From: Candidatus Latescibacterota bacterium
Lineage (GTDB): Bacteria; Latescibacterota; UBA2968
Reading direction: 5' to 3'
DNA length: 64,000 bases
Assembly (NCBI GenBank): GCA_965222605.1
Contig: OZ244960.1
Coordinates: forward strand, 5,805,280-5,869,279
Made by a program: the position numbers and the translations under genes
The notes under the pieces: generated by a model
Database searches by the model: none
Told to the model about the DNA's origin: nothing
Seen by the model: only the letters and a program-made list of their open reading frames with translations
Shown here: positions 11,113 through 60,260 of the stretch, piece by piece
Layout: every line of letters begins with the position of its first letter
How positions within the stretch are numbered: position 1 is the first letter of the stretch

Positions 11113-11177
11113 GGGTAGTTCCTCCAAATGGATTTTTCGTGTGACGGTGAATGGAACTGTGAACTTCTCACAGATAT

Positions 11178-21895: not shown

Positions 21896-23134
21896 ATGCA
21901 ATACCTGACAATAAAAGCCCATCTTCGTGGAGAACCTGAACGCTTTGCCATTCTCCGTGACGCAATGCTGTCTGCGACCAAAGTCTATAATGGCTTGATC
22001 TTCCATCTGCGTGAAGAATACGACCAGCATGGGAAAGTCTGTTATTCGGTCAGCCATCTCAACCGTATCGCCCGCGGATTGCCTCGCCACAAGGAATTGT
22101 ACTCCGATGTGGTGGACACCACGCGACAAGAGGTGGGGTGGGCTTTTCGGTCGTTCTTTCAAAAGTGCAAGCGCGACAAGAAGGCACGGCCTCCAGGGTT
22201 CAGGAAGAAGACGTGCCTGTCTCCGCTGCGCTATTCCCACCCCAATAATGGATCCATCAAAGTGATCCACAAACGCGGGATGACATATCTTCGCATGTCC
22301 CTTGGCACCACCCGACAGGACGGTGTGCGCCATATCGTCTTTCGTCTCCACACCCGCCCAGATATTGACCTTCAGAGGTTGAAAAACGTCCAGATCATCT
22401 ACGATACGCACACACGGGATTTCCAAGTCCGTCTGGTGGTCGAAGTGGATATTGTTCAAAAGCTGAGAGAGGCCACCGTTGGTGTAGATATAGGCGAAGA
22501 CTGGCTCATCGCCGCAGATTTCTGTGACAGCACGCGGTATCTGATCTGTGGACGTGAACTTAAGGCCACACGCCGATACTGGCAGAAGGTCAGAGCAAAG
22601 GTCAAACCGCCCAGCCAGGACCATCCCAAGATGTCGAGACGCTATCGCCAGATCGCCCGAAAAGAAGCCCGACAAATCACGCATGCCCTCCATATCGCCA
22701 GCAGACGGTTTGTGGATATGTGTGCCGATAAGGGTGTGGGCACTATCATCCTGGGAGACCTGACCGGCATCCGACAGCACATCGCTTATGGCACAAGGAT
22801 GAATCAACGCCTGCACGCCTGGCCATATGATAGGCTCAGGGCGATGATTGAATACAAGGCCGCACTGTGTGGCATAAAGGTCAAAGTCGTCTCGGAAAAG
22901 TATACCTCGCAGACTTGCCCGCACTGTGGTATAAGAAAGAAATCCAATCGCAAACATCGTGGTTGGTACTCCTGCCTATGTGGCTTTGAAGGTCAAGCGG
23001 ATCTGGTAGGTGCTTTCAATATCCACCGGCAGGTATCTGGGGTTCCCAGTAGTGGGCGTTCGGCACGCCCCGTGGTCTTGGTGTATGATCACCATACGGT
23101 CCACGAAGCTGCAAGTTCTCGAGAGGCAGCCTGA
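21896..23134 (+). CDS. tnpB: TnpB-family RNA-guided nuclease-like protein (IS200/IS605 OrfB)
   Basis: 412 aa; RuvC-I VGVDIGED (Asp198), RuvC-II region IILGDLTGIR (Gly287 where Glu is expected), zinc finger CPHCG...CLCG, RuvC-III QADLVGAFNI (Asp369). Confidence 0.88.
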   Translation: MQYLTIKAHLRGEPERFAILRDAMLSATKVYNGLIFHLREEYDQHGKVCYSVSHLNRIARGLPRHKELYSDVVDTTRQEVGWAFRSFFQKCKRDKKARPPGFRKKTCLSPLRYSHPNNGSIKVIHKRGMTYLRMSLGTTRQDGVRHIVFRLHTRPDIDLQRLKNVQIIYDTHTRDFQVRLVVEVDIVQKLREATVGVDIGEDWLIAADFCDSTRYLICGRELKATRRYWQKVRAKVKPPSQDHPKMSRRYRQIARKEARQITHALHIASRRFVDMCADKGVGTIILGDLTGIRQHIAYGTRMNQRLHAWPYDRLRAMIEYKAALCGIKVKVVSEKYTSQTCPHCGIRKKSNRKHRGWYSCLCGFEGQADLVGAFNIHRQVSGVPSSGRSARPVVLVYDHHTVHEAASSREAA

Positions 23135-31669: not shown

Positions 31670-32617
31670 ATGATGGATAACGTACGCGTTGGTGTAATTG
31701 GATGTGGTGGCCGGGGCAGGGGACACATCCGAATCTTGAATGAATTTGAAGATGTGCATCTCGCAGCGGTTTGCGATCCGGTTGTGGAGATCCGCGAGTC
31801 CGTGTGTGATGAGTATGAGATCGAAGGACAATACGGCGATGTTTCCGCGTTGCTCGAAGGCGAGGCTCTCGACGCTGTTTTTGTCGCGCCTCCTGCACAC
31901 TTAAATGCCACGCTTGCATTGCCGTGTCTGGAGGCTGGCGTAAATACCTTTTTGGAGAAACCACCGGGTTTGAGTCTGAAAGAAACCAAAGCGTTAAAAG
32001 CTGCATCTGAAGAAACGGATGCGAAAGCCATGGTGGGATGGAATCGGCGATTTCATCCGATTATTGTCGAGGCGCGCAATCTGGTGCTGGATCGCGGTCC
32101 CGTGACGCAATTGGTGGGGGAGTTCCACAAGAGTATCACGGAGTTGGGCAATTCGGGCAAATTTGCCGAGGTACTGATGGATTGTATGCTTTTTGAAACG
32201 CCGATTCACGCCATTGATACCATCCGCTTTTTGGCAGGTGCTGATGTTTCTGAGGTACACAGTGTGGTGCAGCGGTCTATGTCCGGCTATCGGGATGTAC
32301 ACGCGGCTCTCGTCGCGTTTGAAAATGGCGTTGTCGCGCAACTTATTCACAATTATACGACCAATGCCAGGCTGGAGCGTTATGAGATCCACGGGCACGA
32401 GATTTCGGCTTATATGGAGGGTGTGTCGCGCGGAGAGGTTTTTTGCGATGGTGAGAAGATGGCGTTGAGCGGGAATGGGTCGGGAACAGATGAACAGAAC
32501 CGATTTTTCATCGATTGCGTCAAAGAAGATCGCCCAGTCGCGCTTCCCGCGGCAAATTTGGATGAGGCGATTAAAACGATGGAATTGGCCGAGGCGATTA
32601 TGGCGGGGACGCGATAA
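31670..32617 (+). CDS. Gfo/Idh/MocA-family oxidoreductase
   Basis: Start MMDNVRVGVIGCGGRG after GAGGAGG; LEKPP motif. Confidence 0.85.
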   Translation: MMDNVRVGVIGCGGRGRGHIRILNEFEDVHLAAVCDPVVEIRESVCDEYEIEGQYGDVSALLEGEALDAVFVAPPAHLNATLALPCLEAGVNTFLEKPPGLSLKETKALKAASEETDAKAMVGWNRRFHPIIVEARNLVLDRGPVTQLVGEFHKSITELGNSGKFAEVLMDCMLFETPIHAIDTIRFLAGADVSEVHSVVQRSMSGYRDVHAALVAFENGVVAQLIHNYTTNARLERYEIHGHEISAYMEGVSRGEVFCDGEKMALSGNGSGTDEQNRFFIDCVKEDRPVALPAANLDEAIKTMELAEAIMAGTR

Positions 32618-32633
32618 AACCGGCTTCTTTCTA

Positions 32634-32662
32634 TTGACAATATTTTCCGAATCCCATACTTT
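32634..32662 (+). promoter_or_regulatory. Sigma-70-type promoter for tRNA-Pro
   Basis: TTGACA, 17 nt, TACTTT, ending 11 nt before the tRNA 5' end. Confidence 0.5.
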
Positions 32663-32673
32663 TAAATCAGAAA

Positions 32674-32750
32674 CGAGGTGTGGCTCAGTCCGGTAGAGCA
32701 CCTGCTTTGGGAGCAGGGGGCCGGGGGTTCAAATCCCTCCACCTCGACCA
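32674..32750 (+). tRNA. tRNA-Pro (anticodon UGG), CCA encoded
   Basis: Manual fold: acceptor CGAGGTG/CACCTCG, anticodon stem CCTGC/GCAGG with loop TTTGGGA, T-loop GGTTCAAATCC. Confidence 0.9.
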
Positions 32751-32756
32751 ATAAAC

Positions 32757-32795
32757 AAGGGGTTGTGAGTTTTTGCTCGCAACCCCTTTTGTTTT
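32757..32795 (+). terminator. Rho-independent terminator after tRNA-Pro
   Basis: AAGGGGTTGTGAG-loop-CTCGCAACCCCTT (one G-U) followed by TTTTGTTTT. Confidence 0.8.
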
Positions 32796-33012
32796 GAGGT
32801 GTAGTGGAACCGCTATAAAGGCTAATGAACGGGGCAGGACATCGCCCCGTTTTACACCGCTTGACATTGGGCATCAACGTGGTATTTTCTCACACAGAGA
32901 TAGTGTCAAATGTTGTGGATGGCGTCGCGCGCAGCATTGAATTAAAGCGTGAACGGGCCTGGACCAGTTGTAATCCGTCCCCAATGCAAGCGCGTGATAA
33001 TAAGGGTTTTTT

Positions 33013-36000
33013 ATGCTCAAATCACTTGACCGCATGGGTACCTGGCGGACTTATTCTCTGGATAGCGGCCTTGCCGGGCTGCGCGTTGAACATATCGCCG
33101 AGGACAACGAGGGGTGTATCTGGTTCGCCACCTGGGACAACGGTGTTAGTCGCTTCGACGGGGACGAGTTCCGGAATTTTACCAAACAGGACGGCCTTGT
33201 TAATGATCATATTTATTTTGTTTCACAAGACAGTCAGAATCGATTGTGGTTCGGTACAGAAAAAGGCGTCTGCTGGTACGACGGGGTGGGTTTCCATTAT
33301 TTGAAGGGCGATGGGATCGCAGGCCGATCCGTGCAATCTATCTACGAAGATCGTCAGAGGCGTATATGGTTCGGTGGCACGAGTACCCTGGGGTATTACG
33401 ATGGTACTGTGTTTCACGACATGATTCCGCTCTACCTCCAGCACTACGAGCAGCCTCCTTCTCATCAGTGGGCCATGTGTTGGGGTATTACTCAGGATCC
33501 GCAAGGACACCTGTGGTTTGGCTTTGACCGCCTCATCCGCTTTGATGGTGAATTCTTCCACCGCTATGAAGAGAAAGACGGTTTTCCCTACGAAGGGACC
33601 GCCTATGTCGTGGGCCAGGACCATACCGGCAAGGTGTGGATTGGTCGGTTCGGAAATCGAGATGAACTCTGGTGCTATGCCGATGGTGCCTTCCAATCTG
33701 TTCAGGTAAATTTGGGAGGCTGGCTACGCAAAATTCAGTGTGACCGTGAAGGGCGAATGTGGTTCTGCACCTCGGAAGGGGTATTGTATCAGGACAGTGA
33801 CGGATTCAGCAGGTTTCCCCTTGCCGATGGCTTGTCCCATCCCGCAGTCAAAGCCGTGTTTCAGGATCGCGATCATCAGTATTGGTTCGCCACCTGGAGC
33901 GGCGTTGGACTTTACGATGCTCATAGTATCAGCGTTTTTGACCTCGGTAAGGCTTTTCCCAAAGACAAAGAGCCGAGCGAAATCTCGCAGATCGTACAAG
34001 ATCGGCAAGGTGATATATGGATCGGGTGTGTGTCACCCCTTCTTACTGACCTGCCCCAAAGCGTCGCCCGCTTTGATGGCGAGCACTTTACATTTGTAGG
34101 CTCCGAGCAAGGCTTTGATATCAACAACTGTTTCTCTATGTACGAGGACCACGAGGGGTATCTGTGGTTTGGCGGCCTCAACGGCCTGTTCCGCTACGAT
34201 GGGCAGGAAATAAAAAAAATAAAAATAGCTGCGGGTTCAGGCGACAGGAGTATCAGTACAATTACCCAGGACGCGCAAGGTCAATTCCTTTTCGGCTATT
34301 GGGGAAAGGGCACCTATAAAACTAAAATCGGATTCAAAAAAGAAGAGTTTTCGACCAGCCCATTAGAGATCATTTACCAGCGGGGCGAGGCGTTCCAAAC
34401 CATTTTTGTGGAGGATGAAAAGAAAGATATTTTAGACCGCATTGGCACTGTGATTGCCGGGCGCAACAGCGAGATCTATTTTCATTTGGCCTGCCACAAT
34501 TTCTCAGTTGGCAACAGGGGCTTCGCTCGCTGGCATCCCGAAGATGGCCTTAAATTTTATGGAATTGAAGATGGTTTGATAGACCCCAAGGTCAACGACC
34601 TGCTATTAGACCGCGCAGGCAACCTGTGGATTGCCACTTTGAGCGGTCTCGTTCGTTTTGATGGCTACACTTTCCACACATTCACGACTGAAGACGGTCT
34701 GCCGAACAACCGCATTCGGTGTCTATTCGAGGATCGGCAAGGACACCTCTGGCTCGGGACAGAAGGCGGTGTAGTTCACTACGATGGTCAGCTTTTTCAG
34801 ACCATCAAGTCACCGCATATAGGATCGGTTTCTCAGATATTCGAAGATCGCGACGGAACGTTCTATTTTGGCACTGCTCTGGGTTCTATAATACGCTATC
34901 GCCAGCGGCAAACTCCGCCCCAGATTCGCCTGATTCAGGTTGTCGCCGATCAGGTCTATGAGAACTTAGACGACATCATCTTGTCCACGGCAGGACAGCA
35001 GGTGATTTTCGAATACAAGGGGATGAGTTTTTCCACACATCCGCGCGACATGCTCTATGTCTATCGCCTGAAGGGATACGACTCCGACTGGCGTCCAGCG
35101 ACCCGAAAGATGCGGGCCTTTTACCGGGGCTTGCCGCCGGGAGACTACACCTTTCAGGTCAGGTCTATAGATCGCGATCTCAATTATTCAGAGATCGCGC
35201 AGGTAAGACTCTCGATAACGGCGGACCCGCGTATCGAAGCATTTACGGACATAATCAACCGTCGAGGAAGCCAGAAGTTTATCGGGCATAGCGAGGCTCT
35301 GCGCGAGTTTCTAATCAATCTTGAAAAAATCGCATCTACCAATATAACTGTGCTGATTATGGGCGAGACAGGTGTGGGCAAGGGACTGGCAGCACGGGTG
35401 CTACACGCGCTGAGTAACCATAGCGATGGGCCTTTTATAGAGGTTAGTTGCGGTGCATTGCCCGAGGCGTTGATCGATAGCGAACTTTTTGGTCACGAGC
35501 AAGGGGCTTTTACCAGCGCTATTTCCCGCAGACTGGGCAGGGTGGAACTGGCGGAGGGTGGCACGCTCTTTTTGGATGAGATCGGCGATATGGCTGTGGA
35601 AACGCAGGTCAAGCTGTTGCGCTTGCTGGAAGAGGGCACGTTTGAGCGCGTTGGGAGCAGCGAGACGCTGACGACAAAGACGCGGATTGTGGCAGCGACG
35701 AATCGCAATCTGGAAGAGATGGTCAGCACAGATGATTTTCGGGAGGATCTCTATTACCGCCTCAATGCCTTTCCGATGTATTTGCCGCCGCTGCGCGAGC
35801 GCAAGGAGGATATACCATACCTTGCCGAGTTTTTCAAGAACCGCATGGCGACACATTTAGATAAGCAAATCGGCCCTTTGACAGTAGAGGTTATAGAAGT
35901 GCTGCAAGCCTACCATTGGCCAGGCAATGTGCGAGAACTGGAGCATACGATAAACCGCGCCGTAATCGTGTGTCAGGATTCTCGAATTGACGTTGGGGAT

Positions 36001-36219
36001 ATCGGCCTCATAAGCAGTAGCTCTCCTGTTTTTACAGACCGAGAAATCGTGCCTTTGGCTGAATATGAACGCGATTACATACTCAAAGTGCTCAAAGCGA
36101 CCAACTATCAGATAAAAGGTGTTCATGGTGCAGCGGCACTGCTGGGACTACACCCTTCGACGCTGTATGGGAAAATGAGAAAACAGGGTATCAAACGCCC
36201 AGGTAAAGATCATATATAA
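33013..36219 (+). CDS. Sigma-54-dependent transcriptional activator with N-terminal two-component-regulator propeller and Y_Y_Y sensor region
   Basis: 1068 aa; repeated W/F-x-G-T/S..G propeller blades, Y_Y_Y segment (YVYRLKGYDSDW...GDYTFQV), AAA+ core GETGVGKG, GAFTSA loop, DEIGDM, R-finger region, C-terminal Fis-type HTH; no signal peptide, TM segment or receiver domain. Confidence 0.9.
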   Translation: MLKSLDRMGTWRTYSLDSGLAGLRVEHIAEDNEGCIWFATWDNGVSRFDGDEFRNFTKQDGLVNDHIYFVSQDSQNRLWFGTEKGVCWYDGVGFHYLKGDGIAGRSVQSIYEDRQRRIWFGGTSTLGYYDGTVFHDMIPLYLQHYEQPPSHQWAMCWGITQDPQGHLWFGFDRLIRFDGEFFHRYEEKDGFPYEGTAYVVGQDHTGKVWIGRFGNRDELWCYADGAFQSVQVNLGGWLRKIQCDREGRMWFCTSEGVLYQDSDGFSRFPLADGLSHPAVKAVFQDRDHQYWFATWSGVGLYDAHSISVFDLGKAFPKDKEPSEISQIVQDRQGDIWIGCVSPLLTDLPQSVARFDGEHFTFVGSEQGFDINNCFSMYEDHEGYLWFGGLNGLFRYDGQEIKKIKIAAGSGDRSISTITQDAQGQFLFGYWGKGTYKTKIGFKKEEFSTSPLEIIYQRGEAFQTIFVEDEKKDILDRIGTVIAGRNSEIYFHLACHNFSVGNRGFARWHPEDGLKFYGIEDGLIDPKVNDLLLDRAGNLWIATLSGLVRFDGYTFHTFTTEDGLPNNRIRCLFEDRQGHLWLGTEGGVVHYDGQLFQTIKSPHIGSVSQIFEDRDGTFYFGTALGSIIRYRQRQTPPQIRLIQVVADQVYENLDDIILSTAGQQVIFEYKGMSFSTHPRDMLYVYRLKGYDSDWRPATRKMRAFYRGLPPGDYTFQVRSIDRDLNYSEIAQVRLSITADPRIEAFTDIINRRGSQKFIGHSEALREFLINLEKIASTNITVLIMGETGVGKGLAARVLHALSNHSDGPFIEVSCGALPEALIDSELFGHEQGAFTSAISRRLGRVELAEGGTLFLDEIGDMAVETQVKLLRLLEEGTFERVGSSETLTTKTRIVAATNRNLEEMVSTDDFREDLYYRLNAFPMYLPPLRERKEDIPYLAEFFKNRMATHLDKQIGPLTVEVIEVLQAYHWPGNVRELEHTINRAVIVCQDSRIDVGDIGLISSSSPVFTDREIVPLAEYERDYILKVLKATNYQIKGVHGAAALLGLHPSTLYGKMRKQGIKRPGKDHI

Positions 36220-37532: not shown

Positions 37533-38303
37533 ATGTGGCGCATGTTTGTCGTCTTGGCCGTTGTGGTGAGTTGCTGGACGGTGTATTCTGTGTATTCCGA
37601 ACCGAGTTTTCCAATGCCTGAGATGGTGATGATTCCGTCGGGCAGTTTTCAGATGGGCTGTGTGTCGGGTAGGCGCTGCTCGGACGCTGAGAAACCTGTG
37701 CATGAAGTGATGATAGACTCGTTTGCCCTGTCGAAGTATGAGGTGACCTTTGAGGAGTATGATGCATTCACCGATGCGACGGGACGCGAGCGGGCAGACG
37801 ATGAAGGTTGGGGGCGTGGTCGGCGTCCGGTGATCAATGTTTCGTGGTTTGATGCGATGGCCTACACGCAGTGGCTGTCGTCACAGACGGGCAAGACCTA
37901 TCGTTTGCCGAGCGAGGCGGAGTGGGAGTATGCAGCGCGCGCGGGAACTGAGACGATGTTTAGCTGGGGGAATGATTCTGGTTACAACCGCGCCAATTGC
38001 AATGGCTGTGGCAGTCGGTGGGATAAAAAACAGACGGCACCAGTGGGATCATTCGAGGCCAATGGCTGGGGCCTTTACGACATGCACGGTAATGTATGGG
38101 AGTGGGTACGAGATTGTCGGAACGAGAGTTATAGGGGCGCACCGACAGATGGTTCTGCATGGATTGGAATTTGCTCTGAGCGCGTGTTGCGTGGTGGTTC
38201 GTGGTACTTCAGCCCGTGGGTCTTGCGGTCGGCGTATCGCGACTGGTACCCCTCCGGCTATCGGGACGACGTCATCGGTTTTCGAGTTGCCCGGTCTTTT
38301 TAG
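37533..38303 (+). CDS. Secreted FGE-sulfatase-fold (C-type-lectin-fold) protein, non-catalytic; DGR-target-like copy 1
   Basis: Start MWRMFVVLAVVVSCWTV (signal); MVMIPSGSFQMG, RPVINVSW, YRLPSEAEWEYAARAG, GLYDMHGNVWEW, RGGSW...GFRVARSF; no Cys pair after GGSW. Confidence 0.85.
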   Translation: MWRMFVVLAVVVSCWTVYSVYSEPSFPMPEMVMIPSGSFQMGCVSGRRCSDAEKPVHEVMIDSFALSKYEVTFEEYDAFTDATGRERADDEGWGRGRRPVINVSWFDAMAYTQWLSSQTGKTYRLPSEAEWEYAARAGTETMFSWGNDSGYNRANCNGCGSRWDKKQTAPVGSFEANGWGLYDMHGNVWEWVRDCRNESYRGAPTDGSAWIGICSERVLRGGSWYFSPWVLRSAYRDWYPSGYRDDVIGFRVARSF

Positions 38304-38326
38304 CTCCTGATTCTTTACATCTTTAC
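38277..38326 (+). repeat. Conserved 3' block, copy 1 (last 8 codons, stop, 23 nt non-coding)
   Basis: GGTTTTCGAGTTGCCCGGTCTTTTTAGCTCCTGATTCTTTACATCTTTAC; 49/50 identical to copy 2. Confidence 0.9.
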
Positions 38327-38426
38327 TTCATTTGTGGGGCTGGGGACTGGCGGGGGTTTTACGATTTTTTTAGCGACCACTATGATTGCACTTGAGTCGG
38401 TGAACAAGTATCTAAAGGAGGCATCT

Positions 38427-39163
38427 ATGTGGAACCATATTATGTTGACCATTTGTTCGGTGTTTGTGTTGACAGGTCCGGCATCGACTGGAGACATGAC
38501 CCGTGACCCGGACAAGGACTTCAATAAGCTAAGCACCGCAGGAAACCAACGCCCTCAAGGGATCTGGTCGAACGGAACGACCATGTGGGTGGTGGACTCC
38601 TATGACCAGAAAATTTATGCCTACAACCTGAGGACCAAAGCCCGTGACTCGAACAGGATGATAGCTGGGACCGCGAGAATCGTCCTGTGATGAATGTGAG
38701 CTGGGAAGATGCCCAGTCTTATGTTCGCTGGTTGTCTGGCAAGACGGGAAAACCCTATCGTTTATTGAGTGAATCGGAATGGGAGTATGTGGCGCGTGCA
38801 GGTACAGAGACGGCGTATAGCTGGGGGGATCATATTGGTGAAAACCGTGCCAATTGTGATGGTTGCGGCAGTCAGTGGGATGGTAAGCAGACGGCGCCAG
38901 TGGGATCATTCGCAGCCAATGGCTGGGGCCTTTACGACATGCACGGTAATGTAAGGGAGTGGGTGGAAGACTGCTATCATGGCAGCTATGCGGGCGCACC
39001 TACTGATGGAAGTGCACGGGAGTCTACGGAGGGGTGCTGGCGCGTGTTTCGTGGTGGTTCGTGGGACCTCGAACCGAGGAATTTGCGTTCGGCGTATCGC
39101 AGCAGAGGCACCACCGATGTTCGGTACTACAGCATCGGTTTTCGAGTTGCCCGGTCTTTTTAA
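38427..39163 (+). pseudogene. Two-frame chimera: signal peptide plus one WSNGTTMWV..KIYAY blade (38427-38690) joined out of frame to the C-terminal 60 percent of an FGE-fold gene (38648-39163); DGR-target-like copy 2
   Basis: AAGGAGG RBS before ATG 38427; FGE homology (DDSWDRENRPVMNVSW) starts about 38651 in the +1 frame; stop of frame 1 overlaps GTG/ATG at 38687-38692. Confidence 0.5.
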
Positions 39164-39186
39164 CTCCTGATTCTTTACATCTTTAC
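39137..39186 (+). repeat. Conserved 3' block, copy 2
   Basis: GGTTTTCGAGTTGCCCGGTCTTTTTAACTCCTGATTCTTTACATCTTTAC. Confidence 0.9.
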
Positions 39187-39195
39187 CTCTTTTGT

Positions 39196-39243
39196 GGGGG
39201 AGGGTGGGGGGTGGGGGCTTGGGGGTTGGTTTTAGACGGGGGG
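39196..39243 (+). repeat. G-tract cluster (potential G-quadruplex) downstream of copy 2
   Basis: G-runs of 5, 3, 6, 5, 5 and 6 within 48 nt; a shorter version sits at 38336-38356 after copy 1 and GGGGG at 39834-39838 after copy 3. Confidence 0.7.
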
Positions 39244-39343
39244 TTTTACGATTTTTTTTCGAGGGAGGGTTTACGTGGTATGTTCGAAGAATTTTCCCCA
39301 TTGAACAATCCTGTTATAGGATAGGATATCAGGAGTTAGGCTT

Positions 39344-39802
39344 TTGAATGACCAGTCAAATGCTCGGGCACGTCAAACTGGACCGGCATTAGAGGCACAT
39401 TACCAGTTCATTCTGTGGCTGGTGCCCACCCTGGAGCGATTTCCCCGCAATCAGTGGGATGCAGAGAAGACAGCTCCAGGGGGCTCGTTTAGTGCCAACA
39501 GATGGGGTCTCCACGACATGCACGGTAATGTGGCAGAGTGGGTGCAAGATTGTTGGAACTGGGATTACAAGGGGGCACCTGCAGACGGTTCTGCGTGGGA
39601 GTCTGGGGACTGTTCTGAGCGCGTGTTGCGTGGTGGTTCGTGGATAAGCGAACCCTATTCTGATTTCAGTCTTGCTATCTGCTCGGCATGTCGGGCCAGC
39701 ATACTCCTCAAATCTCGCCAAAGAAGGATTTTCGGTCATATAGTTGGAGGTGAAATTTTCCGAAGTAGCACCGTCGGTTTTCGAGTTGTCCGGTCTTTTT
39801 AG
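39344..39802 (+). CDS. Chimeric ORF: Avd/four-helix-bundle-like N-terminal 37 codons fused in frame to the C-terminal part of an FGE-fold domain (copy 3)
   Basis: TTG start after AGGAG; ALEAHYQFILWLVPTLERFPRNQ then WDAEKTAPGGSFSANRWGLHDMHGNVAEWV...RGGSW...GFRVVRSF; may be a non-functional fusion. Confidence 0.5.
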   Translation: MNDQSNARARQTGPALEAHYQFILWLVPTLERFPRNQWDAEKTAPGGSFSANRWGLHDMHGNVAEWVQDCWNWDYKGAPADGSAWESGDCSERVLRGGSWISEPYSDFSLAICSACRASILLKSRQRRIFGHIVGGEIFRSSTVGFRVVRSF

Positions 39803-39825
39803 ATCCTGATTCTTTATTTTTTCCC
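39776..39825 (+). repeat. Conserved 3' block, copy 3 (diverged)
   Basis: GGTTTTCGAGTTGTCCGGTCTTTTTAGATCCTGATTCTTTATTTTTTCCC. Confidence 0.8.
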
Positions 39826-39853
39826 TCTTGTGTGGGGGAGGAAGGAGAAAACC

Positions 39854-41509: not shown

Positions 41510-42043
41510 GAGTAATTGTGCAGAAACCGAGCCTGATAGAATGTCTTGCCATTAAACGAAAGAGAAAAATGTAGTTAGAGTTTCGGGATAGCACTCATCA
41601 TCAAGAACCCAAAATCTCCAATGTCTTTTTTCGCTGGCGAATACAGGTTTGTCCTCTAAGCACAGCCACCAATTCAAATAATCCCGGCCCAAACCCAACG
41701 CCGCAAAGTGCAAGGCGCGTTAATGCGTTTGGAACCCAACAGGTCGGGTTCACCAGCCAATGTGTACGTGTGGCGTCGCACGCAACGATAGTAGGCGAAA
41801 ATTGATAAAAGAAGAGACAGCATGCGAAGAGTGATCACAAGTATTTTTGTTCTATTTTTACTGGGATTCTCCACAGTTGCATTCGCCCAACTGCCACCGG
41901 AGGTCATGGTAGATAAACATCTGATGCAGGCAGAACAGCTACTTGAGAAAAAAGACTATATAGTTGCGTTCAACATGATGGACAAAATCATCGCGCTGCA
42001 AAAAGAGCACAGTCTCACATTGCCAGACGAGTTCCACTTTAAG

Positions 42044-42052
42044 TATACACAG
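42044..42052. repeat. Target-site duplication, left copy
   Basis: TATACACAG immediately before the left inverted repeat. Confidence 0.85.
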
Positions 42053-43126
42053 ACGTGATGTGTGACTTTAAATAGCGAAAAAGAGGTTCCTCGGCTATCT
42101 TGAATTGTTCACTAAACAAGAAGCCATTCAACGAAAGGAACCTCCAATGTATAATTTAGACCTTTTTGTCATTGCAATCTACTGTTTTATTGAAGACGAA
42201 CTTTATTCGGCTTTCTGTAAGGTACATGGCAAGCCCCGTCAAGCAGGCTTTGAGCCCGGTCTAAGTGATGCCGAATGTCTCACCATAGAAATCGTGGGTC
42301 ACTTTCTGGGATATTCAAGCCAGAAAAAACTTTATGAGCAGATGAAAGAACACTTCATAGATTGGTTTCCCACTTTGAAAGACCGTCCTGCCTTTGTGCG
42401 TCAATGTGCCAATTTGTGGGTTGTCAAGATGTGGATGCAACAGCGGATTGTTGCCAGCTTGGAAGGGCATCAGGCATCCTGCCAGATCATAGATACGCTA
42501 CCCTTACCGATCTGTAAACTGGCAAGGCGACATTATCGCAAGATATTTACAAGAGAGCCAGTCTTTGAGTTCCCACCCCCTTCAAAAGGCTTCTGTGCTG
42601 CCAAAAGCGAAGCGTATTTTGGTTTTAAGGGTGGCCTGAGGATCACGGATTATGGCCTTATTGTCCACGCGCCGATCTTGAAAGCGTATGGACACGACAA
42701 GAACTGCCGAGAGGCACTCCTTGATGGCACAATGGGAGATACAACCGTCTTGGCCGATGCGGCCTTTATGGATTTGGACTGGCAAAAAAGGTGCTTTGAT
42801 ACCTACCGAATACGCATAAAGACACCCTTAAAGTCCAATATGAAAGACAATCCTGAACGCACCCCTTTCATTTTGCCCAAAGCGAAGAAAGCCACAAGGC
42901 GATTAGTCGGAGCGGTGTACAACTTCGCAGAAGTTCAACCGTTTATGCACAATTGACAGAACGCTTGCATATTGCCCGCATGAAAGTGCGAGATGCATGG
43001 CATTTATTGAACTTGTGGCATACCAAAATCTTAACCCATACTATGTGTGTCTTTCTCAATATCATCAATTATCGAGACCCTCTTGATTTTGATGGCCTCG
43101 TGCAATTTTGAAGTCACACATCGCGT
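42053..43126 (+). mobile_element. IS982-family insertion sequence (1074 bp)
   Basis: Terminal inverted repeats ACGTGATGTGTGACTTTAAA (42053-42072) and TTTGAAGTCACACATCGCGT (43107-43126), 18/20 complementary; 9-bp direct repeats outside. Confidence 0.85.
42147..43111 (+). pseudogene. IS982-family DDE transposase with a frameshift near 42900-42950
   Basis: MYNLDLFVIAIYCFIEDE...LSDAE...IIDTLPLPIC...GFCAAKSEAYFGFKG...LADAAF in frame 1 (stop 42956); conserved C-terminus STVYAQLTERLHIARMKVRDAW...continues in another frame to a stop inside the right IR. Confidence 0.75.
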
Positions 43127-44123: not shown

Positions 44124-46442
44124 ATGCGTAAACAGATTCTGTTTCTCTTATCAACACTCGCGCTTTTGATATATCCGCTGTCTCTTTCGGGACAGAATAG
44201 TACGGCAGGTGATCAAGACCTTACCCCGGACTTTGATGGGGATGGTCAGGTTGGCTTCCCTGACTTTTTGGCGTTTGTGGGTCAGTTTGGGGCACGTGAG
44301 GGGGATGGGCGTTATGATGTCAGATATGATCTGGATAGTGATGGCGAAATTGGATTTTCCGATTTTCTGCTCTTTAGTGCCAGCTTTGGCAAAGGGGAGC
44401 CTGCCTCTGGCGGTGATGGTGCAACGATGGTTGCTATTCCGGATGGGAACCTGCGTGCTGCTATTGAGGCTATTCTCAACAAGGTGAGTGGTGCGCCGAT
44501 CACTCAGGGTGAGATGGCGGCCTTGACGCGCCTTGATGCCCGGAATGCGAATATCAAGGACTGGGCCGGGCTTGAGTTTGCGACTAACCTGATAGATCTG
44601 AATCTTGAAGACAACAACCTCTCGGATGTATCTGCGTTGTCTGGCTTGACTCGTCTGGAAGTGCTGAATCTTGGGTCCAACGACCTCTCAGATGTGTCTG
44701 CGTTGTCGGGCTTAACCAACCTGACATTTCTGAATCTTTCTGACAACAGTATCTCGGACCTCACGCCCCTATCGAGTTTGACTAACCTGACAACGCTGGA
44801 TCTTTCCGGCACCGGCGTCAGGGATTTGTCAGCGTTGTCTGGCTTGACCAATCTGGAATCGCTGGATCTTGCTAACAACAGGATCACGGATGTATCTGTA
44901 TCGTCATTGTCAGTTTTGACCAATCTGAGGTCGTTGGAACTTTCCTCCAACTTCATTGGTGATGTATCTGCATTGTCAGTTTTGACCAATCTGAGGTCGT
45001 TGGATCTTTCCTCCAATTTCATCAGGGATGTGTCCGCGCTGTCTGGCTTGGTCAATCTGACGGATCTGGATCTTTCCTTCACGAGCATCAGTGATGTGTC
45101 AGTGCTGTCTGGCTTGATCAATCTGGAATCGCTGGATCTTTCCTTCACCAGTATCAGTGATTTGTCAGTGCTGTCTGGCTTGATCAATCTGGAATCGCTG
45201 GATCTTTCCGGCACCGGTATCAGGGATTTGTCAGCGTTGTCTGGCTTGACTAATCTGACAAGTCTGAAACTTTACAAAACCAGTATCTCAGACCTCGCAC
45301 CTCTGGTCGCAAACACGGGATTGGGCAGTGGAGATGAGATTGATGTGAGAGAAACTCCGTTGAGTGACACATCACGCAAAACGCATATTCTATCCCTTCT
45401 GCGTAGAGGAGTTGAGATTTCTTTTTATGTAAGTATCCCAGATATTAATCTGCACGCTGTTATTGAGGATAGTCTCGGCAAGGCGCAAGGGGCACCAATT
45501 GCGGTAGCTGAAATGGCGGCCTTGACGCGCTTTAGTGCCCGGGATGCGAATATTAGGGACTTAACAGGGCTTGAGTTTGCTGCTAATCTGGTATGGTTAC
45601 ATCTTGGTTCCGGTGTGATTGATCCGTTTTCCAACAGCAACGAGATATCCGACATCTCGCCCCTTTCTGGCTTGACCAACCTGACTTATCTGAATCTTTT
45701 TCTCAACGATGTCTCGAATATCACCCCATTATCAGGCTTGACCCGTCTGGAATGGCTGAATCTTGCCAACAACAGCATCAGTGATGTGTCCGCGCTGTCA
45801 GGCTTGACCCGTCTGGAAGGGCTGAATCTTAACAATATGAACATCACAGATGTGTCAGCACTATCGGGCTTGACCCGTCTGGAATGGTTGCGTCTTACAT
45901 TCAGCGACATTGTTGATGTGTCCGCGCTGTCAGGCTTGACCAACCTGACTTTTCTGTTTCTTGGTTACACCAACATCTCGAATATCACACCATTATCAGG
46001 CATGACCAATCTGGAAGAACTGCGTCTTAACAATAACAACATCAGTGATGTGTCCGCACTCTCAGGCTTGACCCGTCTGAATTACCTGGTGCTTACCCGC
46101 AACAACATCAGTGATGTGTCCGCACTCTCAGGCTTGACCAATCTGGAACAGCTGTGGCTTTACAACAACAGCATCTCGGATCTTGCGCCTCTGGTGGCAA
46201 ACACGGGATTGGGTACTGGAGATGTGGTTGGTGTGCAGAATAATCCGTTGAGTGCCATATCGCTCAACACGCATATTCCAGCCCTTCAAGACAGAGGAGT
46301 TGAGGTGCGTTTTGGCGCGTTGAAGCCCGCGGTGGAGAAGGAGGAATCCTCAGGGCTTGAGGAGTGGGAGGCAGGAGATTATATTTTTCGCAGGCAGGTG
46401 GAGAAGGGAAAGGACGCGCTCAAATCCGCGACAGAGCAGTAA
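44124..46442 (+). CDS. Secreted dockerin-like plus double LRR-module protein
   Basis: 772 aa; signal MRKQILFLLSTLALLIYPLS; two EF-hand/dockerin-like DxDGDGxVGFxDF repeats; two LRR modules, each with the cap LRAAIE...EMAALTRL and tail ...THI..L..RGVE. Confidence 0.8.
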   Translation: MRKQILFLLSTLALLIYPLSLSGQNSTAGDQDLTPDFDGDGQVGFPDFLAFVGQFGAREGDGRYDVRYDLDSDGEIGFSDFLLFSASFGKGEPASGGDGATMVAIPDGNLRAAIEAILNKVSGAPITQGEMAALTRLDARNANIKDWAGLEFATNLIDLNLEDNNLSDVSALSGLTRLEVLNLGSNDLSDVSALSGLTNLTFLNLSDNSISDLTPLSSLTNLTTLDLSGTGVRDLSALSGLTNLESLDLANNRITDVSVSSLSVLTNLRSLELSSNFIGDVSALSVLTNLRSLDLSSNFIRDVSALSGLVNLTDLDLSFTSISDVSVLSGLINLESLDLSFTSISDLSVLSGLINLESLDLSGTGIRDLSALSGLTNLTSLKLYKTSISDLAPLVANTGLGSGDEIDVRETPLSDTSRKTHILSLLRRGVEISFYVSIPDINLHAVIEDSLGKAQGAPIAVAEMAALTRFSARDANIRDLTGLEFAANLVWLHLGSGVIDPFSNSNEISDISPLSGLTNLTYLNLFLNDVSNITPLSGLTRLEWLNLANNSISDVSALSGLTRLEGLNLNNMNITDVSALSGLTRLEWLRLTFSDIVDVSALSGLTNLTFLFLGYTNISNITPLSGMTNLEELRLNNNNISDVSALSGLTRLNYLVLTRNNISDVSALSGLTNLEQLWLYNNSISDLAPLVANTGLGTGDVVGVQNNPLSAISLNTHIPALQDRGVEVRFGALKPAVEKEESSGLEEWEAGDYIFRRQVEKGKDALKSATEQ

Positions 46443-55285: not shown

Positions 55286-55380
55286 GGGGATGGCAGTGAG
55301 GTGCAGTCGGACTTTGAGGCCAAAGTGGAAGCGATAACGCGCTGATGGCCTGGCGTGCCGAAGTTTGCAAAAGGGGAGTG

Positions 55381-57150
55381 ATGATCATGCCCTGGGATAG
55401 CGATAGATTGTTGCAGCAAATCGAACTTGGCGAGGACAGCCGCGTCGAGTTCAAGGAAGTTGTGTTTGCTGGTGGTCGCGTGCGGGCACCGCGTCGGGAA
55501 ACCATCGCCGATGAATTGGCTGCTTTTGGCAACACCATCGGTGGCACATTGATCTTCAGTGTGTCAGACGCTGGTGAGGTGTGGTCGATGAACCGAAAAC
55601 AAATGGATGCGTTGGAAGCCTTCGTCAGCGAGAATTGTTCGGACAGCATCCGTCCTCCGTTGGCGTTCGTCACCCAACGGCTGGCCTTGCCAGACGGTTC
55701 GTTCGCGTTGGTCGTCGAAGTCGAACAGAGTGCGTTGGTACACAAGAGCTCCGGGGGATATCTTTCCCGGCAGGGTAGCACCAGGCGAGAGTTGTCGTCG
55801 GAAGCATTGCACCGCCTGTTTCAACAGCGGGGGCGTTCTGGCCTTCTTGGCCCTGACGAAGCGATTGTCGCTGGGACAGGGGCCAATACGCTCGATGCGA
55901 CGCTTGTGGACCGTTTCTTAAGTTCGCGTGCCACTGAGTCCACCGCGGCACAACTCGCAAAGCTGGGACTGGTGCGGGAGGATGACAACGGTGTGACCCG
56001 CGCAACAGTCGCCGGGGTGCTGCTTTGCACGATACGCCCGGATGAACACATACGCGGTGCGGTGATCGAAGCCGTTCGCTATCGCGGCACGGTACTCGGT
56101 CGTGCGAGCCAGCACGACGCGGCGTCAATTACTGGTCCATTGGATCGGCAGATCCGCGACGCCGTCAATTTCGCCAGGCTCAACACGCGGGTGGCGGCGC
56201 GCAAGGACCCCGGACGGGTGGAGGTCCCGCAATTCAGTCCGCGGGCGGTGTTCGAGGCCATCGTCAACGCCGTGGTCCACCGCGACTACTCAATGGAGAA
56301 TACGAAGATACGGCTCTTTATCTTCGACGATAGACTTGAGTTATGCTCTCCGGGTGCCCTGCCCAATACGCTGCCTATCGAAGCCATGCGAAATCGACAA
56401 GCCACCCGCAACGAAACGCTCGCGTCCGTCTTCCGTATGCTTGCAGTAGGGGATATCGTCGGTGCTGGCGACCAGCAGTACTTTTTGGAGCTACGCGGCG
56501 AAGGCGTTCCGATCATCTATGAGCAGACGCGGGATCTGACAGGGCACGACCCGAACTACGAACTGATCGGTGGCGCAGAACTGCGACTGACGATACCGTC
56601 CGCTCGTCCACCGGTAACGGGCATTGAAGGTGAAGTATCCGTATCTGCCGCGGGTCGGCCACTCGCGGGTGCAAAGGTCGTTGTGCTGTATCCCAACAAG
56701 ACCTGGATGGAGGGGGAGACCGATACGTTTGGCCGGGTCGGTTTCGAGTTTCACTCGGAACTCCCCATCACCGTTTTTTGTGCGGCATCGGGGCACACAG
56801 CCCATGTGGAGCGGAATTGGTACCCGCCAGAACTGCTCTCTGTACAGCTTGAGACGCTGCCAATGGGAGGATCAGAGATTTTCACGGAAGGAACAGGTCA
56901 TTTGCCCGATTTGACCGGGCGACTAAATCCGATCCTCGACGATCTAGACCGCATGTATCTTTACGCGATTAACGTCGCTATTGATGAAGGCAAGCAGCAA
57001 CCCGTTTATTTCAAACTGAATCAGCCCTTGCGGCTTACCGATGCCAACGGTTTTGAATGGGTCGTGCGGTTTGTTGAGATGATCGGAAGGTCGGCACTGC
57101 TGGAATACGAGTCCCCGGGCCAAAGACGGAGGACCAATGAACAGAGATGA
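55381..57150 (+). CDS. AlbA_2 (Schlafen-like) plus HATPase_c_4 DNA-binding protein with ~230-aa unassigned C-terminal extension
   Basis: Start MIMPWDSD after GGGGAG; LGEDSRVEFKEV...ELAAFGNTIGGTLIFSV (AlbA_2); AVFEAIVNAVVHRDYS (HATPase_c_4-like); C-terminus includes a beta-sandwich-like GEVSVSAAGRPLAGAKVVVLY. Confidence 0.75.
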   Translation: MIMPWDSDRLLQQIELGEDSRVEFKEVVFAGGRVRAPRRETIADELAAFGNTIGGTLIFSVSDAGEVWSMNRKQMDALEAFVSENCSDSIRPPLAFVTQRLALPDGSFALVVEVEQSALVHKSSGGYLSRQGSTRRELSSEALHRLFQQRGRSGLLGPDEAIVAGTGANTLDATLVDRFLSSRATESTAAQLAKLGLVREDDNGVTRATVAGVLLCTIRPDEHIRGAVIEAVRYRGTVLGRASQHDAASITGPLDRQIRDAVNFARLNTRVAARKDPGRVEVPQFSPRAVFEAIVNAVVHRDYSMENTKIRLFIFDDRLELCSPGALPNTLPIEAMRNRQATRNETLASVFRMLAVGDIVGAGDQQYFLELRGEGVPIIYEQTRDLTGHDPNYELIGGAELRLTIPSARPPVTGIEGEVSVSAAGRPLAGAKVVVLYPNKTWMEGETDTFGRVGFEFHSELPITVFCAASGHTAHVERNWYPPELLSVQLETLPMGGSEIFTEGTGHLPDLTGRLNPILDDLDRMYLYAINVAIDEGKQQPVYFKLNQPLRLTDANGFEWVVRFVEMIGRSALLEYESPGQRRRTNEQR

Positions 57151-57191
57151 GGTTCTGTATGTCATGAGTATTTTTTACGAGGTACATCGTT

Positions 57192-60100
57192 TTGAATAAT
57201 GCATTTTTCGAAAAGCCTGTCCTCAACTCGCCTTATGAGCGGCCTAACCTACATTGGGAACTGGATGGGGCAAGACAGCCAACCCAGAAAATCATCGAAA
57301 GCCGAAGGCAGGTCTCATTCATCACGGCGGTCCCGACATCGAAGAAGCAAAGGGGATCATCCTTGAATCAAGCCTCTCTTGTGTTCGACAAGGCCGCGAG
57401 GGAGCTTGAGACCGATAATCAGCAATACGAGTTGATGCAGACTATCAATGGTGTTCGCCGACAGATTGACCGGTGGCGCGAGCTACCGAACCCGAACCAA
57501 TGGCGTGTGACCGCGGAGACTGCCCGCTTGCTTCGGCACTGGCGGCACCACCAATTCAGTGGTATTCGCCCCTTTTTCTGCCAGGTGGAAGCAGTAGAAA
57601 CCGCAATATGGCTCACTGAGGTTGCGCCGAACATAGGGCAGGTGGGTAGGGGATTCCTCGACCATCTGGAAAACGCTAATAACGACGCCAATCCAGATTT
57701 GTCGCGATTGGCACTCAAGTTGGCGACAGGCGCAGGGAAGACCACTGTGATGGCGATGTTGATCGCCTGGCAGACCATCAATGCGGTCCGCCGACCCCAG
57801 AGCCGCAGGTTCACGCGCGGCTTTCTGGTGGTTACGCCCGGTATTACCATTAAGGATCGCTTGCGCGTGTTGCAGCCGAATGATCCGGATAGCTATTATC
57901 AGAGCCGCGAGTTGGTGCCGAGTGACATGCTTCCCGATCTGGAAAAGGCAAAAATTGTTATCACCAACTACCACGCCTTCAAGTTGCGCGAACGCATGGA
58001 ATTATCCAGAGGCGGGCGTTCCTTGCTTCAAGGACGGGGCGATGCACTAACGACCCTGGAGACCGAGGGACAGATGCTGCAACGGGTGATGCCCGAACTC
58101 ATGGGCATGAAGAATGTCATGGTTCTCAACGATGAGGCGCACCACTGCTATCGGGAGAAGCCGGGTGAGCAGGAAGAAGGCAGGCTTACGGGAGACGATA
58201 GGCAGGAAGCTAAAAAGAATGCGGAAGCTGCGCGGCTATGGATTTCCGGGCTTGAAACGGTGGGTAAAAAGCTCGGTATTAACCGGGTGATGGATCTTTC
58301 TGCGACGCCTTTCTTTTTGCGCGGGTCGGGTTATCGCGAAGGAACATTGTTTCCCTGGACGATGTGCGACTTCTCGCTGATGGACGCCATCGAATGCGGC
58401 ATTGTCAAACTGCCCCGGGTACCGGTGGCGGACAATATCCCCGGTGGCGATATGCCGAAGTTCCGCAATCTCTGGGAACACATCCGCACCCGCATGCCGA
58501 AGAGGGGACGGGGTAAGTCCAAACATCTCGATCCTTTGAGTTTGCCCGTAGAGCTACAAACTGCACTGGAGGCTTTGTACGGGCATTACGAAAAGACCTT
58601 CGCGCTTATGGATGAGGCTGGTATTAGTGTTCCGCCGTGCTTTATAGTGGTCTGTAATAATACCTCGACTTCCAAGCTGGTTTACGATTATATTTCTGGC
58701 TTCCACCGCGAAAACGATGATGGCTCAACGACGTTTGAAAACGGGCGTCTTGGGTTGTTCCGCAACTTTGACGAATATGGCAACCCGTATCCACTGCCTC
58801 GCACCTTGTTGATCGATAGCCATCAACTGGAGTCTGGTGATGCACTGGATAGTAACTTCCGCAAGATAGCCGCTGAGGAGATCGATCGTTTCCGACGGGA
58901 TCGCATCACGCGCACGGGCGACCGCGAGCAGGCTGAGAAGATCACCGACCAGGAGCTTCTCCGCGAGGTTATGAATACCGTTGGCAAACCCGATCAACTG
59001 GGGGCTTCGATTCGCTGTGTTGTGTCGGTATCAATGCTCACTGAAGGATGGGACGCGAATACGGTCAGCCATGTACTCGGCGTTCGCGCGTTTGGAACGC
59101 AGTTGCTATGCGAACAAGTCGTTGGTCGCGCGTTGCGGCGGCAATCTTATGATCTCAACGATGATGGTCTGTTCGATGTCGAGTACGCAGATGTATTGGG
59201 GATCCCCTTTGATTTTACGGCGAAGCCTGTTTCAGTGTCACCTCGGCCGCCGCGGGAAACTGTGCAGGTGAGGGCCGTGCGCCCCGAAAGGGATGAACTC
59301 GAGATTTATTTTCCGCGGGTAGCTGGGTACCGGGTGGAATTGCCCGAAGAGAGGCTCACTGCGGAGTTCAACGAGGATTCAGTGCTGGAACTCACGCCGG
59401 ATATGATTGGGCCGTCGCATACGACGAATCAGGGGATTATTGGCGAGGGTGTCGATCTCAATCTGGTTCACACAGGCGATCTTCGTCCTTCGACCCTTCT
59501 CTTTCACCTCACCCGTCGGTTGCTTTATACGAAGTGGCGCGATCCGGATGAGGATCCGAAGATGCATCTCTTTGGACAACTCAAGAGCATCACCAAACAA
59601 TGGCTTGATGGTTGTCTTGTTTGTAAAGGTGGCACGTATCCCGCGCAACTTATGTATCAGGCACTGGCTGACATAGCCTGCGAGCGCATCACGGCTGCCA
59701 TCACGCGAGCAAAAATCGATAGTCGTCCTGTCAAAGCGGTGCTCGATCCGTATAACCCTATCGGTTCCACCGCGCATGTCAACTTCAACACGTCTAAGAC
59801 CAGTCGCTGGGAGACCGACGCCCGCCGTTGCCATATCAATTGGGTTGTCCTCGATAGCGATTGGGAAGCAGAGTTTTGCCGCGTGGTCGAAGCTCATCCT
59901 CGTGTCAGAGCGTATGTGAAGAACCACAATCTGGGGTTGGAAGTACCTTACCGCTACGGCTCTGAAACGCGGACGTATATCCCGGACTTTATTGTTCTGA
60001 TTGATGATGGCCGTGGCGACGACGATCTCTTGCATCTCATCGTTGAGATCAAAGGCTATCGCAGAGAGGATGCCAAAGAGAAGAAGACGACTATGGACAC

Positions 60101-60260
60101 CTATTGGGTACCCGGTGTGAATAATCATGGTCGCTATGGTCGTTGGGCCTTTGCCGAGTTCACAGACGTCTATGAGATAGAGTCGGAATTTGAGGCCAAA
60201 ATGGAGGCGGTATTTGATGAGATGATTGAACAAAACGCCGCGCATTGCGTTTCTATGTGA
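57192..60260 (+). CDS. res: Type III restriction enzyme Res subunit (SF2 helicase plus C-terminal PD-(D/E)xK nuclease)
   Basis: 1022 aa, TTG start; Walker A LATGAGKTTVMAM, DEAH box LNDEAHHC, motif VI region, C-terminal YIPDF...VEIKGY. Confidence 0.88.
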   Translation: MNNAFFEKPVLNSPYERPNLHWELDGARQPTQKIIESRRQVSFITAVPTSKKQRGSSLNQASLVFDKAARELETDNQQYELMQTINGVRRQIDRWRELPNPNQWRVTAETARLLRHWRHHQFSGIRPFFCQVEAVETAIWLTEVAPNIGQVGRGFLDHLENANNDANPDLSRLALKLATGAGKTTVMAMLIAWQTINAVRRPQSRRFTRGFLVVTPGITIKDRLRVLQPNDPDSYYQSRELVPSDMLPDLEKAKIVITNYHAFKLRERMELSRGGRSLLQGRGDALTTLETEGQMLQRVMPELMGMKNVMVLNDEAHHCYREKPGEQEEGRLTGDDRQEAKKNAEAARLWISGLETVGKKLGINRVMDLSATPFFLRGSGYREGTLFPWTMCDFSLMDAIECGIVKLPRVPVADNIPGGDMPKFRNLWEHIRTRMPKRGRGKSKHLDPLSLPVELQTALEALYGHYEKTFALMDEAGISVPPCFIVVCNNTSTSKLVYDYISGFHRENDDGSTTFENGRLGLFRNFDEYGNPYPLPRTLLIDSHQLESGDALDSNFRKIAAEEIDRFRRDRITRTGDREQAEKITDQELLREVMNTVGKPDQLGASIRCVVSVSMLTEGWDANTVSHVLGVRAFGTQLLCEQVVGRALRRQSYDLNDDGLFDVEYADVLGIPFDFTAKPVSVSPRPPRETVQVRAVRPERDELEIYFPRVAGYRVELPEERLTAEFNEDSVLELTPDMIGPSHTTNQGIIGEGVDLNLVHTGDLRPSTLLFHLTRRLLYTKWRDPDEDPKMHLFGQLKSITKQWLDGCLVCKGGTYPAQLMYQALADIACERITAAITRAKIDSRPVKAVLDPYNPIGSTAHVNFNTSKTSRWETDARRCHINWVVLDSDWEAEFCRVVEAHPRVRAYVKNHNLGLEVPYRYGSETRTYIPDFIVLIDDGRGDDDLLHLIVEIKGYRREDAKEKKTTMDTYWVPGVNNHGRYGRWAFAEFTDVYEIESEFEAKMEAVFDEMIEQNAAHCVSM

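Follow-up and report, generated by a model that had tools for sequence, protein, structure and literature searches.

Here, we report what are very probably the remains of a decayed diversity-generating retroelement (DGR), chromosomal and with several targets, its core deleted and its variable regions (VRs) left as orphans, in Candidatus Latescibacterota bacterium (GTDB lineage Bacteria; Latescibacterota; UBA2968). The element lies in a 64,000-nucleotide (nt) stretch of contig OZ244960.1 (GenBank assembly GCA_965222605.1; positions 5,805,280 to 5,869,279, forward strand), hereafter the window, and includes three genes of the formylglycine-generating enzyme (FGE) type, named c1, c2, and c3. The deleted-core reading is supported because contigs from sister strains keep avd (the DGR accessory gene), a C-terminal remnant of the reverse transcriptase (RT), and an adenine-rich template repeat (TR) at the orthologous position. 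A preliminary description of the window, made from its letters and open reading frames (ORFs), had also preferred a deleted core; the sister loci uphold this, as does the avd stub that opens the c3 ORF, noticed there as an Avd-like peptide and identical at 36/37 residues to the N terminus of the Avd ORF (Pfam bAvd PF22296) of sister contig L121. The central features of the locus are as follows.

37533-38303, plus strand: c1, the sole intact target gene (256 aa; FGE/C-type-lectin fold).
38176-38293, plus strand: VR1, the TR-homologous stretch of c1 (blastn to positions 11325-11442 of sister contig L119), with its variable core at 38205-38276.
38657-39163, plus strand: c2, a 5'-truncated target remnant without signal peptide and without about the first 90 residues of the fold.
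39037-39153, plus strand: VR2, the TR-homologous stretch of c2 (81%; blastn to the same positions, 11325-11442 of L119), with its variable core at 39065-39136.
39344-39454, plus strand: avd stub, codons 1 to 37 of the accessory gene, ending at the deletion junction 39454/39455.
39455-39802, plus strand: c3, a C-terminal portion from a further FGE-type gene, in frame with the avd stub.

In DNA, the window is ~80% identical to several complete Latescibacterota chromosomes, and three sister contigs (L119, L120, and L121), which come from the samples ERZ25071132, ERZ25068966, and ERZ25072670, have flanks 94 to 97% identical to it. In the sister contigs, the c1 orthologue with its identical kind of 3' flank is followed by an ORF that joins Avd residues 1 to ~78 to the C-terminal ~45 residues of an RT, and then by an intact, adenine-rich TR. 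The fusion junction reads EKLRF|TREKVVARVCAWIAHADHANT, where the intact Avd P0285 continues ...EKLRFLCRLARDL, and the fusion ORF is, by this junction, what an internal RT deletion would leave. The deletion is identical in L119 (10951-11445) and L121 (2301-2795), with TR and spacer kept intact in both. The TR follows directly on the stop codon of the fusion ORF, encodes NNKPRNLRSANRNRNTTENRNNNN, and reads CGTGGTGGTTCGTGG AAC AAC AAA CCG AGG AAT TTG CGT TCG GCG AAT CGC, then AAC AGG AAT ACC ACC GAA AAC CGG AAC AAC AAT AAC GGTTTTCGAGTTGCCCG. Because it was seen in three contigs from three samples, the TR is unlikely to be an assembly artefact. An adenine-rich repeat of the kind that the preliminary description proposed to search for is present at the orthologous site in L119, L120, and L121.

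Remains of the same machinery were found in more distant relatives. At the syntenic locus of L073 (~80% nt identity), only a C-terminal RT fragment is left, from YVDDF onward; L122 and L123 carry a related cassette in the order target-avd-RT-TR with interrupted RT reading frames. These frames (L122 5934-7376; L123 10001-10976) are broken near the N terminus and end in ...HADHANT where L119 and L121 read on. The core had been described beforehand as avd-TR-RT; its deletion is supported by the sister contigs, but the genes of this clade run avd-RT-TR. With the TR placed directly behind the RT stop codon in this DGR clade, many database "RT" ORFs run into the TR, which is why such read-through ORFs bear annotations for RVT_1 and FGE-sulfatase domains together.

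The sister-strain TR served as the reference for the VRs of the window and is not their exact donor. Compared with it, VR1 is changed at 22/31 adenines and at 5/41 other bases (Fisher p = 3.8e-7), and VR2 at 15/31 adenines and 4/41 other bases (Fisher p = 3.4e-4); each sister VR, set against its own TR, is changed at 15 to 20 of 31 to 32 adenines and at 1 non-adenine (p = 1e-8 to 3e-6). Three non-adenine differences to the TR, in the third positions of codons 15, 19, and 23, are common to c1 and c2, and because they are shared, the simplest reading is that the last rewriting of both genes used a TR variant peculiar to the window's lineage, slightly unlike the sister-strain TR, and that this variant then went missing with the deletion at 39454/39455. 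Across 40 homologues, mean entropy is 2.99 bits at adenine-containing TR codons, 0.65 at adenine-free ones, and 0.71 in the rest of the protein. The 90% protein cluster of c1 holds two further members, which differ mainly in the 24 residues after RGGSW.

According to the preliminary description, evenly distributed substitutions at orthologous loci would have reduced the array to ordinary paralogues. The substitutions were found concentrated in the VR core, the c1 orthologues of L119 and L121 having ~25 differences in its 72 nt and ~11 in the other ~700 nt of the gene. An ordinary paralogue family, with a fast C-terminal loop under positive selection and no retroelement, can appeal to FGE-fold proteins such as PvdO, which have a similar C-terminal segment without a DGR. 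We regard it as already refuted and give it almost no credence, since the orthologous locus holds an adenine-rich TR, an Avd gene, and RT remnants, an avd fragment sits inside the array, VR changes fall mostly on TR adenines, and the variability of the family tracks the adenine-containing TR codons.

Within the window, the three plus-strand ORFs (c1, 37533-38303; c2, 38687-39163; c3, 39344-39802) share the C-terminal module RGGSW...GFRV(A/V)RSF, as described beforehand. The copy 1 and copy 2 comparison given there also proved exact on recount: c1 and c2 are identical at 15/15 nt before the variable block (38190-38204 versus 39050-39064), differ at 16/24 codons within its 72 nt (38205-38276 versus 39065-39136; the count includes an extra codon, ATC, ahead of GGTTTTCG), and are identical at 49/50 nt after it, past the stop codon. 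By codon position (1/2/3), their differences number 14/7/5 in the block and 24/15/37 in the upstream coding part. The boundary motif CGTGGTGGTTCGTGG (up to 2 mismatches) occurs 3 times in the 64 kb against 0.17 expected, and GGTTTTCGAGTTGCCCG (up to 3 mismatches) 3 times against 0.25 expected. In c3, these motifs enclose 132 nt, not 72.

39644-39775, plus strand: aberrant block of c3 (132 nt), between boundary motifs at 39629-39643 and 39776-39792, containing CxxC.

No homologue of this block was found in any of the loci compared. The c1 orthologue of the ~80% relative L073 (5473-6294, minus strand) has an expanded, aberrant C-terminal segment (…RGGSWFNGPGNLRSARRFGRPLMRSWRLHGSPPPNWNPEHQSFNYGFRVLRDL), which resembles the long block of c3; VR decay by insertion seems to have occurred in more than one lineage.

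The layout of one full-length, expressed-type copy followed by promoterless, 5'-truncated copies could also be read in the manner of pilE/pilS, with the retroelement dead and c2, possibly c3, serving as silent cassettes that donate variable blocks to c1 by homologous recombination; identical sequence brackets the blocks (25/26 nt upstream, 49/50 downstream). This is improbable to our minds, since the upstream homology is very short, the c2 block is seen in c1 of no strain, and adenine changes from the TR account for each of the three c1 alleles. The truncated copies also end at clear deletion junctions, with a repeat-protein gene and with avd, both unrelated, which speaks of decay and not of a maintained donor array, and neither c2 nor c3 is present in sister strains L119 to L121.

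The sequence beyond the VRs is conserved and non-coding.

38294-38372, plus strand: 3' flank of VR1, conserved and non-coding, with GTCTTTTTAG, CTCCTGATTCTTTACATCTTTAC, and G-runs, then GTTTTACGATTTTTTT.
39154-39343, plus strand: 3' flank of VR2 and, beyond it, sequence upstream of avd, collinear with the stretch that separates the c1 orthologue from avd in L119 and L121 and close to it in sequence.

TR and VR diverge directly behind GCCCG: past GGTTTTCGAGTTGCCCG, the VR reads GTCTTTTTAG and the TR reads CACGCTCG. This divergence point and the conserved flank may together function as a 3' boundary like the initiation of mutagenic homing (IMH) site. The same 3' flank stands behind the VRs of c2, c3, L073, L119, and L121 and of the kinase-FGE targets of L122 and L123. 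In the window, it can be followed at 38294-38372, 39154-39260, and 39793-39838 (...CTCCTGATTCTTTACATCTTTACCTCTTTTGTGGGG, several G-runs, then GTTTTACGATTTTTTT), and it recurs in different genomes and behind unrelated targets. No significant hairpin or cruciform was found 3' of the VR, folding energies being no better than those of shuffled sequences (z about 0). The G-runs in the flanks of c2, L119, and L121 match the strict G-quadruplex motif; as a general feature of DGR flanks this was rejected, only 1/116 VR flanks having passed the strict motif, and it is a local peculiarity at most.

The machinery itself is missing from the window, as the preliminary description had claimed for RT and TR. 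Pfam scans of the large ORFs found no RVT domain, the only YxDD motif in the six frames lies inside a heparinase-like ORF, and a same-clade RT used as tblastn query gave no match to the window at E ≤ 1. Neither a TR nor a fourth VR-like copy was found in the 64 kb (blastn, word size 7; boundary-motif scans), and no intact avd is present, codons 1 to 37 alone being left and fused to c3. A boundary-motif search of genome contigs returned >117 loci, mostly cyanobacterial DGR VRs and TRs, which suggests that the VR boundary motif is generic to this DGR class; among the >117 loci listed were neither a Latescibacterota TR nor any locus of the window's own genome. Scans of metagenome contigs with a TR-specific pattern and with the TR-spacer junction gave 0 matches each. 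In a protein search with an RT fragment, all matches were ≤254 aa (1.75 times the query); full-length RTs are probably outside the matches listed. The Avd profile search covers the best 120 of 3114 matches.

Of what had been described as three tandem genes, three FGE-type copies stand, but only c1 is complete, c2 and c3 being 5'-truncated remnants. Matches to Pfam FGE-sulfatase PF03781 agree with this in extent: c1 covers profile positions 2-255 of 255 (E = 9.9e-61), c2 93-255 (E = 2.8e-38), and c3 154-230 (E = 8.4e-21). The N terminus of c1 is predicted to be a signal peptide with a possible lipobox (VVSC), and its product is probably a secreted or lipid-anchored binding protein. Among solved structures, PvdO (5HHA; E = 7.8e-46) is nearest to c1 in sequence, with further matches to FGEs and to the DGR variable protein TvpA (2Y3C; E = 2.5e-16, 26% identity). 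An AlphaFold2 model of c1 (predicted local distance difference test score, 75; VR loop of low confidence) resembles the same proteins in fold, with template-modelling (TM) scores of 0.79 for PvdO (41% identity), ~0.71 for FGEs, and 0.72 for TvpA (root mean square deviation, 3.1). The FGE-like fold proposed in the preliminary description is thereby confirmed, and the profile and structure searches suggested there do reach a DGR variable protein, TvpA, by both sequence and fold. In c1, the fold expected of a DGR target (C-type-lectin/FGE) is combined with a VR in the last 43 codons.

Catalytic FGEs carry a copper-binding cysteine pair in the motif GGS[FY]LCHxSYCxRYR. The alignment of c1 to FGEs ends at RGGSWY, and direct reading of c1 and c2 finds the 32 residues after RGGSW free of cysteine, so the absence of the catalytic cysteines noted earlier holds for both; c3 has a CxxC 13 residues downstream of RGGSW, a spacing unlike that of FGE. 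Because no cysteine follows RGGSW, c1 and c2 are, by their sequence, not catalytic FGEs.

The breakage of the array can be followed at its junctions, where two more remnants of genes were found.

38427-38657, plus strand: remnant of a secreted repeat protein ("GIWSxGTTMWV"), with signal peptide and one repeat.
41822-42058, plus strand: probable fourth target remnant, an N-terminal piece of 78 aa, ending beside an insertion sequence (IS).

Residues 11-94 of a 402-aa repeat protein, full-length in L073, align by tblastn to 38400-38657. The remnant is joined out of frame to c2 at ~38657, where the homology of c2 to c1 begins; from there, c2 aligns to residues 90-256 of c1 at 66%, its body being 78% identical in DNA. 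Residues 16-45 of intact Avd P0285 align by tblastn to 39365-39454 (E = 4.5e-12), the one place in the window that Avd matches, and the stub is 78% identical to the start of avd behind a VR gene in L040; no Pfam match was obtained with the stub alone, the fragment being too short. At 39454/39455, the frame of c3 jumps from avd into the middle of an FGE domain. The ORF at 41822-42058 is 66% identical to residues 41-123 of an L073 ORF (4335..3310) that runs into an FGE domain, and it adjoins a DDE transposase ORF (Pfam) at 42105-42956; it is probably a fourth broken target.

By analogy with known DGRs, an avd-RT-TR cassette would once have stood beside the targets. Its RT-Avd complex would have copied TR RNA, misincorporating opposite adenines, and the cDNA would have replaced the ~118-nt VR at the 3' end of targets with the FGE/C-type-lectin fold, randomizing ~17 codons of the ligand-binding face. 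Replacement would have ended at the TR/VR divergence after GCCCG, beside the conserved 3' flank. To judge from the junctions, the array was broken by two deletions and an IS: one deletion (~38657) joined target 2, at its middle, to the neighbouring gene for the repeat protein, and the other (39454/39455) fused avd codon 37 to the middle of target 3 and took away the RT and the TR with all that remained of avd. The outcome is two pseudogene remnants, c2 and c3, and one intact gene, c1, whose variable region is most likely now frozen.

Comparisons between strains bear on whether any rewriting continues. L001, assembled independently from nearly the same strain, is identical to the window in c1 to c3; the two differ at 51 positions, of which 47 are substitutions, and a single one of the 51 is not upstream of 34525. 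Most of the differences (40/47 substitutions and 3/4 single-base indels) fall in ~1.2 kb at 31795-32954, which looks like a recombination tract, and the following 7 kb are identical. VR heterogeneity between the two assemblies is nil (n = 2, consensus sequences only; a weak test). L119 and L120 differ by 34 single-nucleotide polymorphisms, none of them in VR or TR (consensus sequences). Both comparisons argue against rapid ongoing rewriting.

Several points weigh against the deleted and frozen state. The identity of the two assemblies is weak evidence against activity because their whole last 7 kb are identical and the common ancestor is therefore very recent, and an RT with a matching TR is possible elsewhere on the 6,338,376-bp chromosome. 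In L121, TR and VR share a derived G->A located 12 nt upstream of the variable core, and L119 and L121 have the same RT deletion yet completely different VRs. The shared base is a hint that sequence passed from TR to VR when the cis RT was already gone, via a trans RT or gene conversion; together with the L119/L121 VR difference, it could be explained by gene conversion or by recombination between strains. Stand-alone genes of the FGE-type family are also common and dispersed in related chromosomes (L124 and L125), as would be expected if remote targeting were normal in the group.

The array might accordingly be still live, with c1 and perhaps c2 rewritten in trans by an RT-Avd and TR encoded elsewhere on the chromosome. 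Remote targets and trans activity of DGRs are documented (PMC5758913, PMC10907252), and c1 and c2 keep VR boundaries and conserved 3' flank intact. In addition to the co-varying TR/VR base of L121 and the dispersed family members, the spacer downstream of the RT-less sister TR is ~90% identical to that of the avd-RT-TR cassette of L122. Against live rewriting stand the lack of a TR in the 64 kb, the 5 and 4 non-adenine mismatches of c1 and c2 to the nearest known TR, and the lack of VR differences between the two assemblies. L122 and L123, from the same samples as L121 and L001, hold the only related cassettes seen in those samples. They were rejected as donors, their TRs differing from VR1 and VR2 at many non-adenine sites, and as parts of the window's genome, the 90% clusters of their neighbour genes occurring only on chromosomes of 5.2 to 5.5 Mb and not of 6.34 Mb. 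On balance, we consider continued rewriting in trans unlikely, and a deleted core with a frozen c1 the better account of the locus.

Pfam assigns the large ORFs of the window to ordinary housekeeping, leucine-rich-repeat (LRR), IS, and defence-like genes, an Rfam scan found three tRNAs only, and a promoter/terminator scan of the locus gave nothing above chance. A tRNA gene (32674-32747) lies just upstream of a sigma-54 Reg_prop/Y_Y_Y regulator (33013-36219); in L121 (1-320), the tRNA flank jumps straight to the gene before c1, and the 3.2-kb regulator gene is absent. In the more distant relatives L064, L071, and L073, FGE genes lie across the regulator on the opposite strand. The tRNA/regulator/FGE region is, by these arrangements, an apparent rearrangement hotspot. 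Three LRR proteins are encoded at 10342-12125 (minus strand) and 44124-46442 (plus strand), one of which (772 aa) is syntenic with LRR genes beside FGE genes in L064 and L071. A TnpB-like ORF (21896-23134, plus strand; 412 aa) has OrfB_IS605 and Cas12f1-like TNB domains. At 55345-60260 (plus strand), a Schlafen/AlbA_2-HATPase_c_4 protein adjoins a 1022-aa ResIII helicase with an RE_endonuc domain, and the two together look like defence genes. The window also has a sulfatase gene (PF00884), at 139-1827 (minus strand); the FGE-fold genes of the window are unlikely to be its maturase because they are without catalytic cysteines.

Among known systems, the DGR of Treponema denticola, with its target TvpA (2Y3C), is similar in having an FGE-type, C-type-lectin-fold target without catalytic cysteines and with a C-terminal VR. 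That element has several targets, some of them remote (PMC5758913), whereas the window is without RT and TR, its Avd is cut to 37 codons, 2/3 copies are truncated, and identity to TvpA is 26%. Thiohalocapsa sp. PB-PSB1 has degenerate loci without RT or TR, with or without evidence of service in trans (Dore et al. 2024; PMC10907252). Likeness to it lies in chromosomal DGR loci whose RT, TR, or accessory gene is missing or pseudogenized, in mobile elements taking part in the decay, and in the same question of orphan VRs served in trans; it differs in phylum and in its targets, which are large conflict-system sensors and not a short, secreted, FGE-only protein as in the window. The DGR of Bordetella phage BPP-1 (mtd-avd-TR-brt) shares the adenine-specific TR-to-VR transfer into a C-terminal C-type-lectin fold and a sharp 3' TR/VR divergence point that gives directionality (IMH-like). 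Unlike BPP-1, the clade of the window has the order avd-RT-TR, in which the TR directly follows the RT stop codon, and no detectable hairpin or cruciform 3' of the VR, and the window's element is chromosomal, multi-target, and dead in the window. PvdO (5HHA), the closest solved structure by sequence and fold, is also without the FGE catalytic cysteines; it is a pyoverdine-maturation factor and no DGR target, and its likeness does not go beyond the fold.

Wu et al. 2018 (PMC5758913) described DGRs with several targets, remote targets, and trans complementation from a plasmid; degenerate DGR loci are likewise already known, and the finding adds no new mechanism. A literature search found no DGR studies in Latescibacterota. 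What the locus offers is a clean, well-dated example of the death of a chromosomal DGR, with successive stages in close strains: the RT deleted and the TR kept, then the TR and most of avd gone and the targets truncated and fused. For annotation, it shows that the FGE-fold genes to which these genomes give the label "formylglycine-generating enzyme family" encode binding proteins diversified by a retroelement and not sulfatase maturases. The derived base shared by TR and VR in L121, the conserved spacer, and the same 3' flank behind unrelated targets hint, at low probability, that RT-less modules of this Latescibacterota lineage (the sister TR and target; the bare c1 and c2) are still rewritten by one RT-Avd encoded elsewhere. 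If so, DGRs would survive the deletion of their own RT genes through a single "master" enzyme that works for several private templates, and, if such a trans-acting RT exists, this locus and those of the sister strains would offer a natural test of private TRs outliving their own RT.

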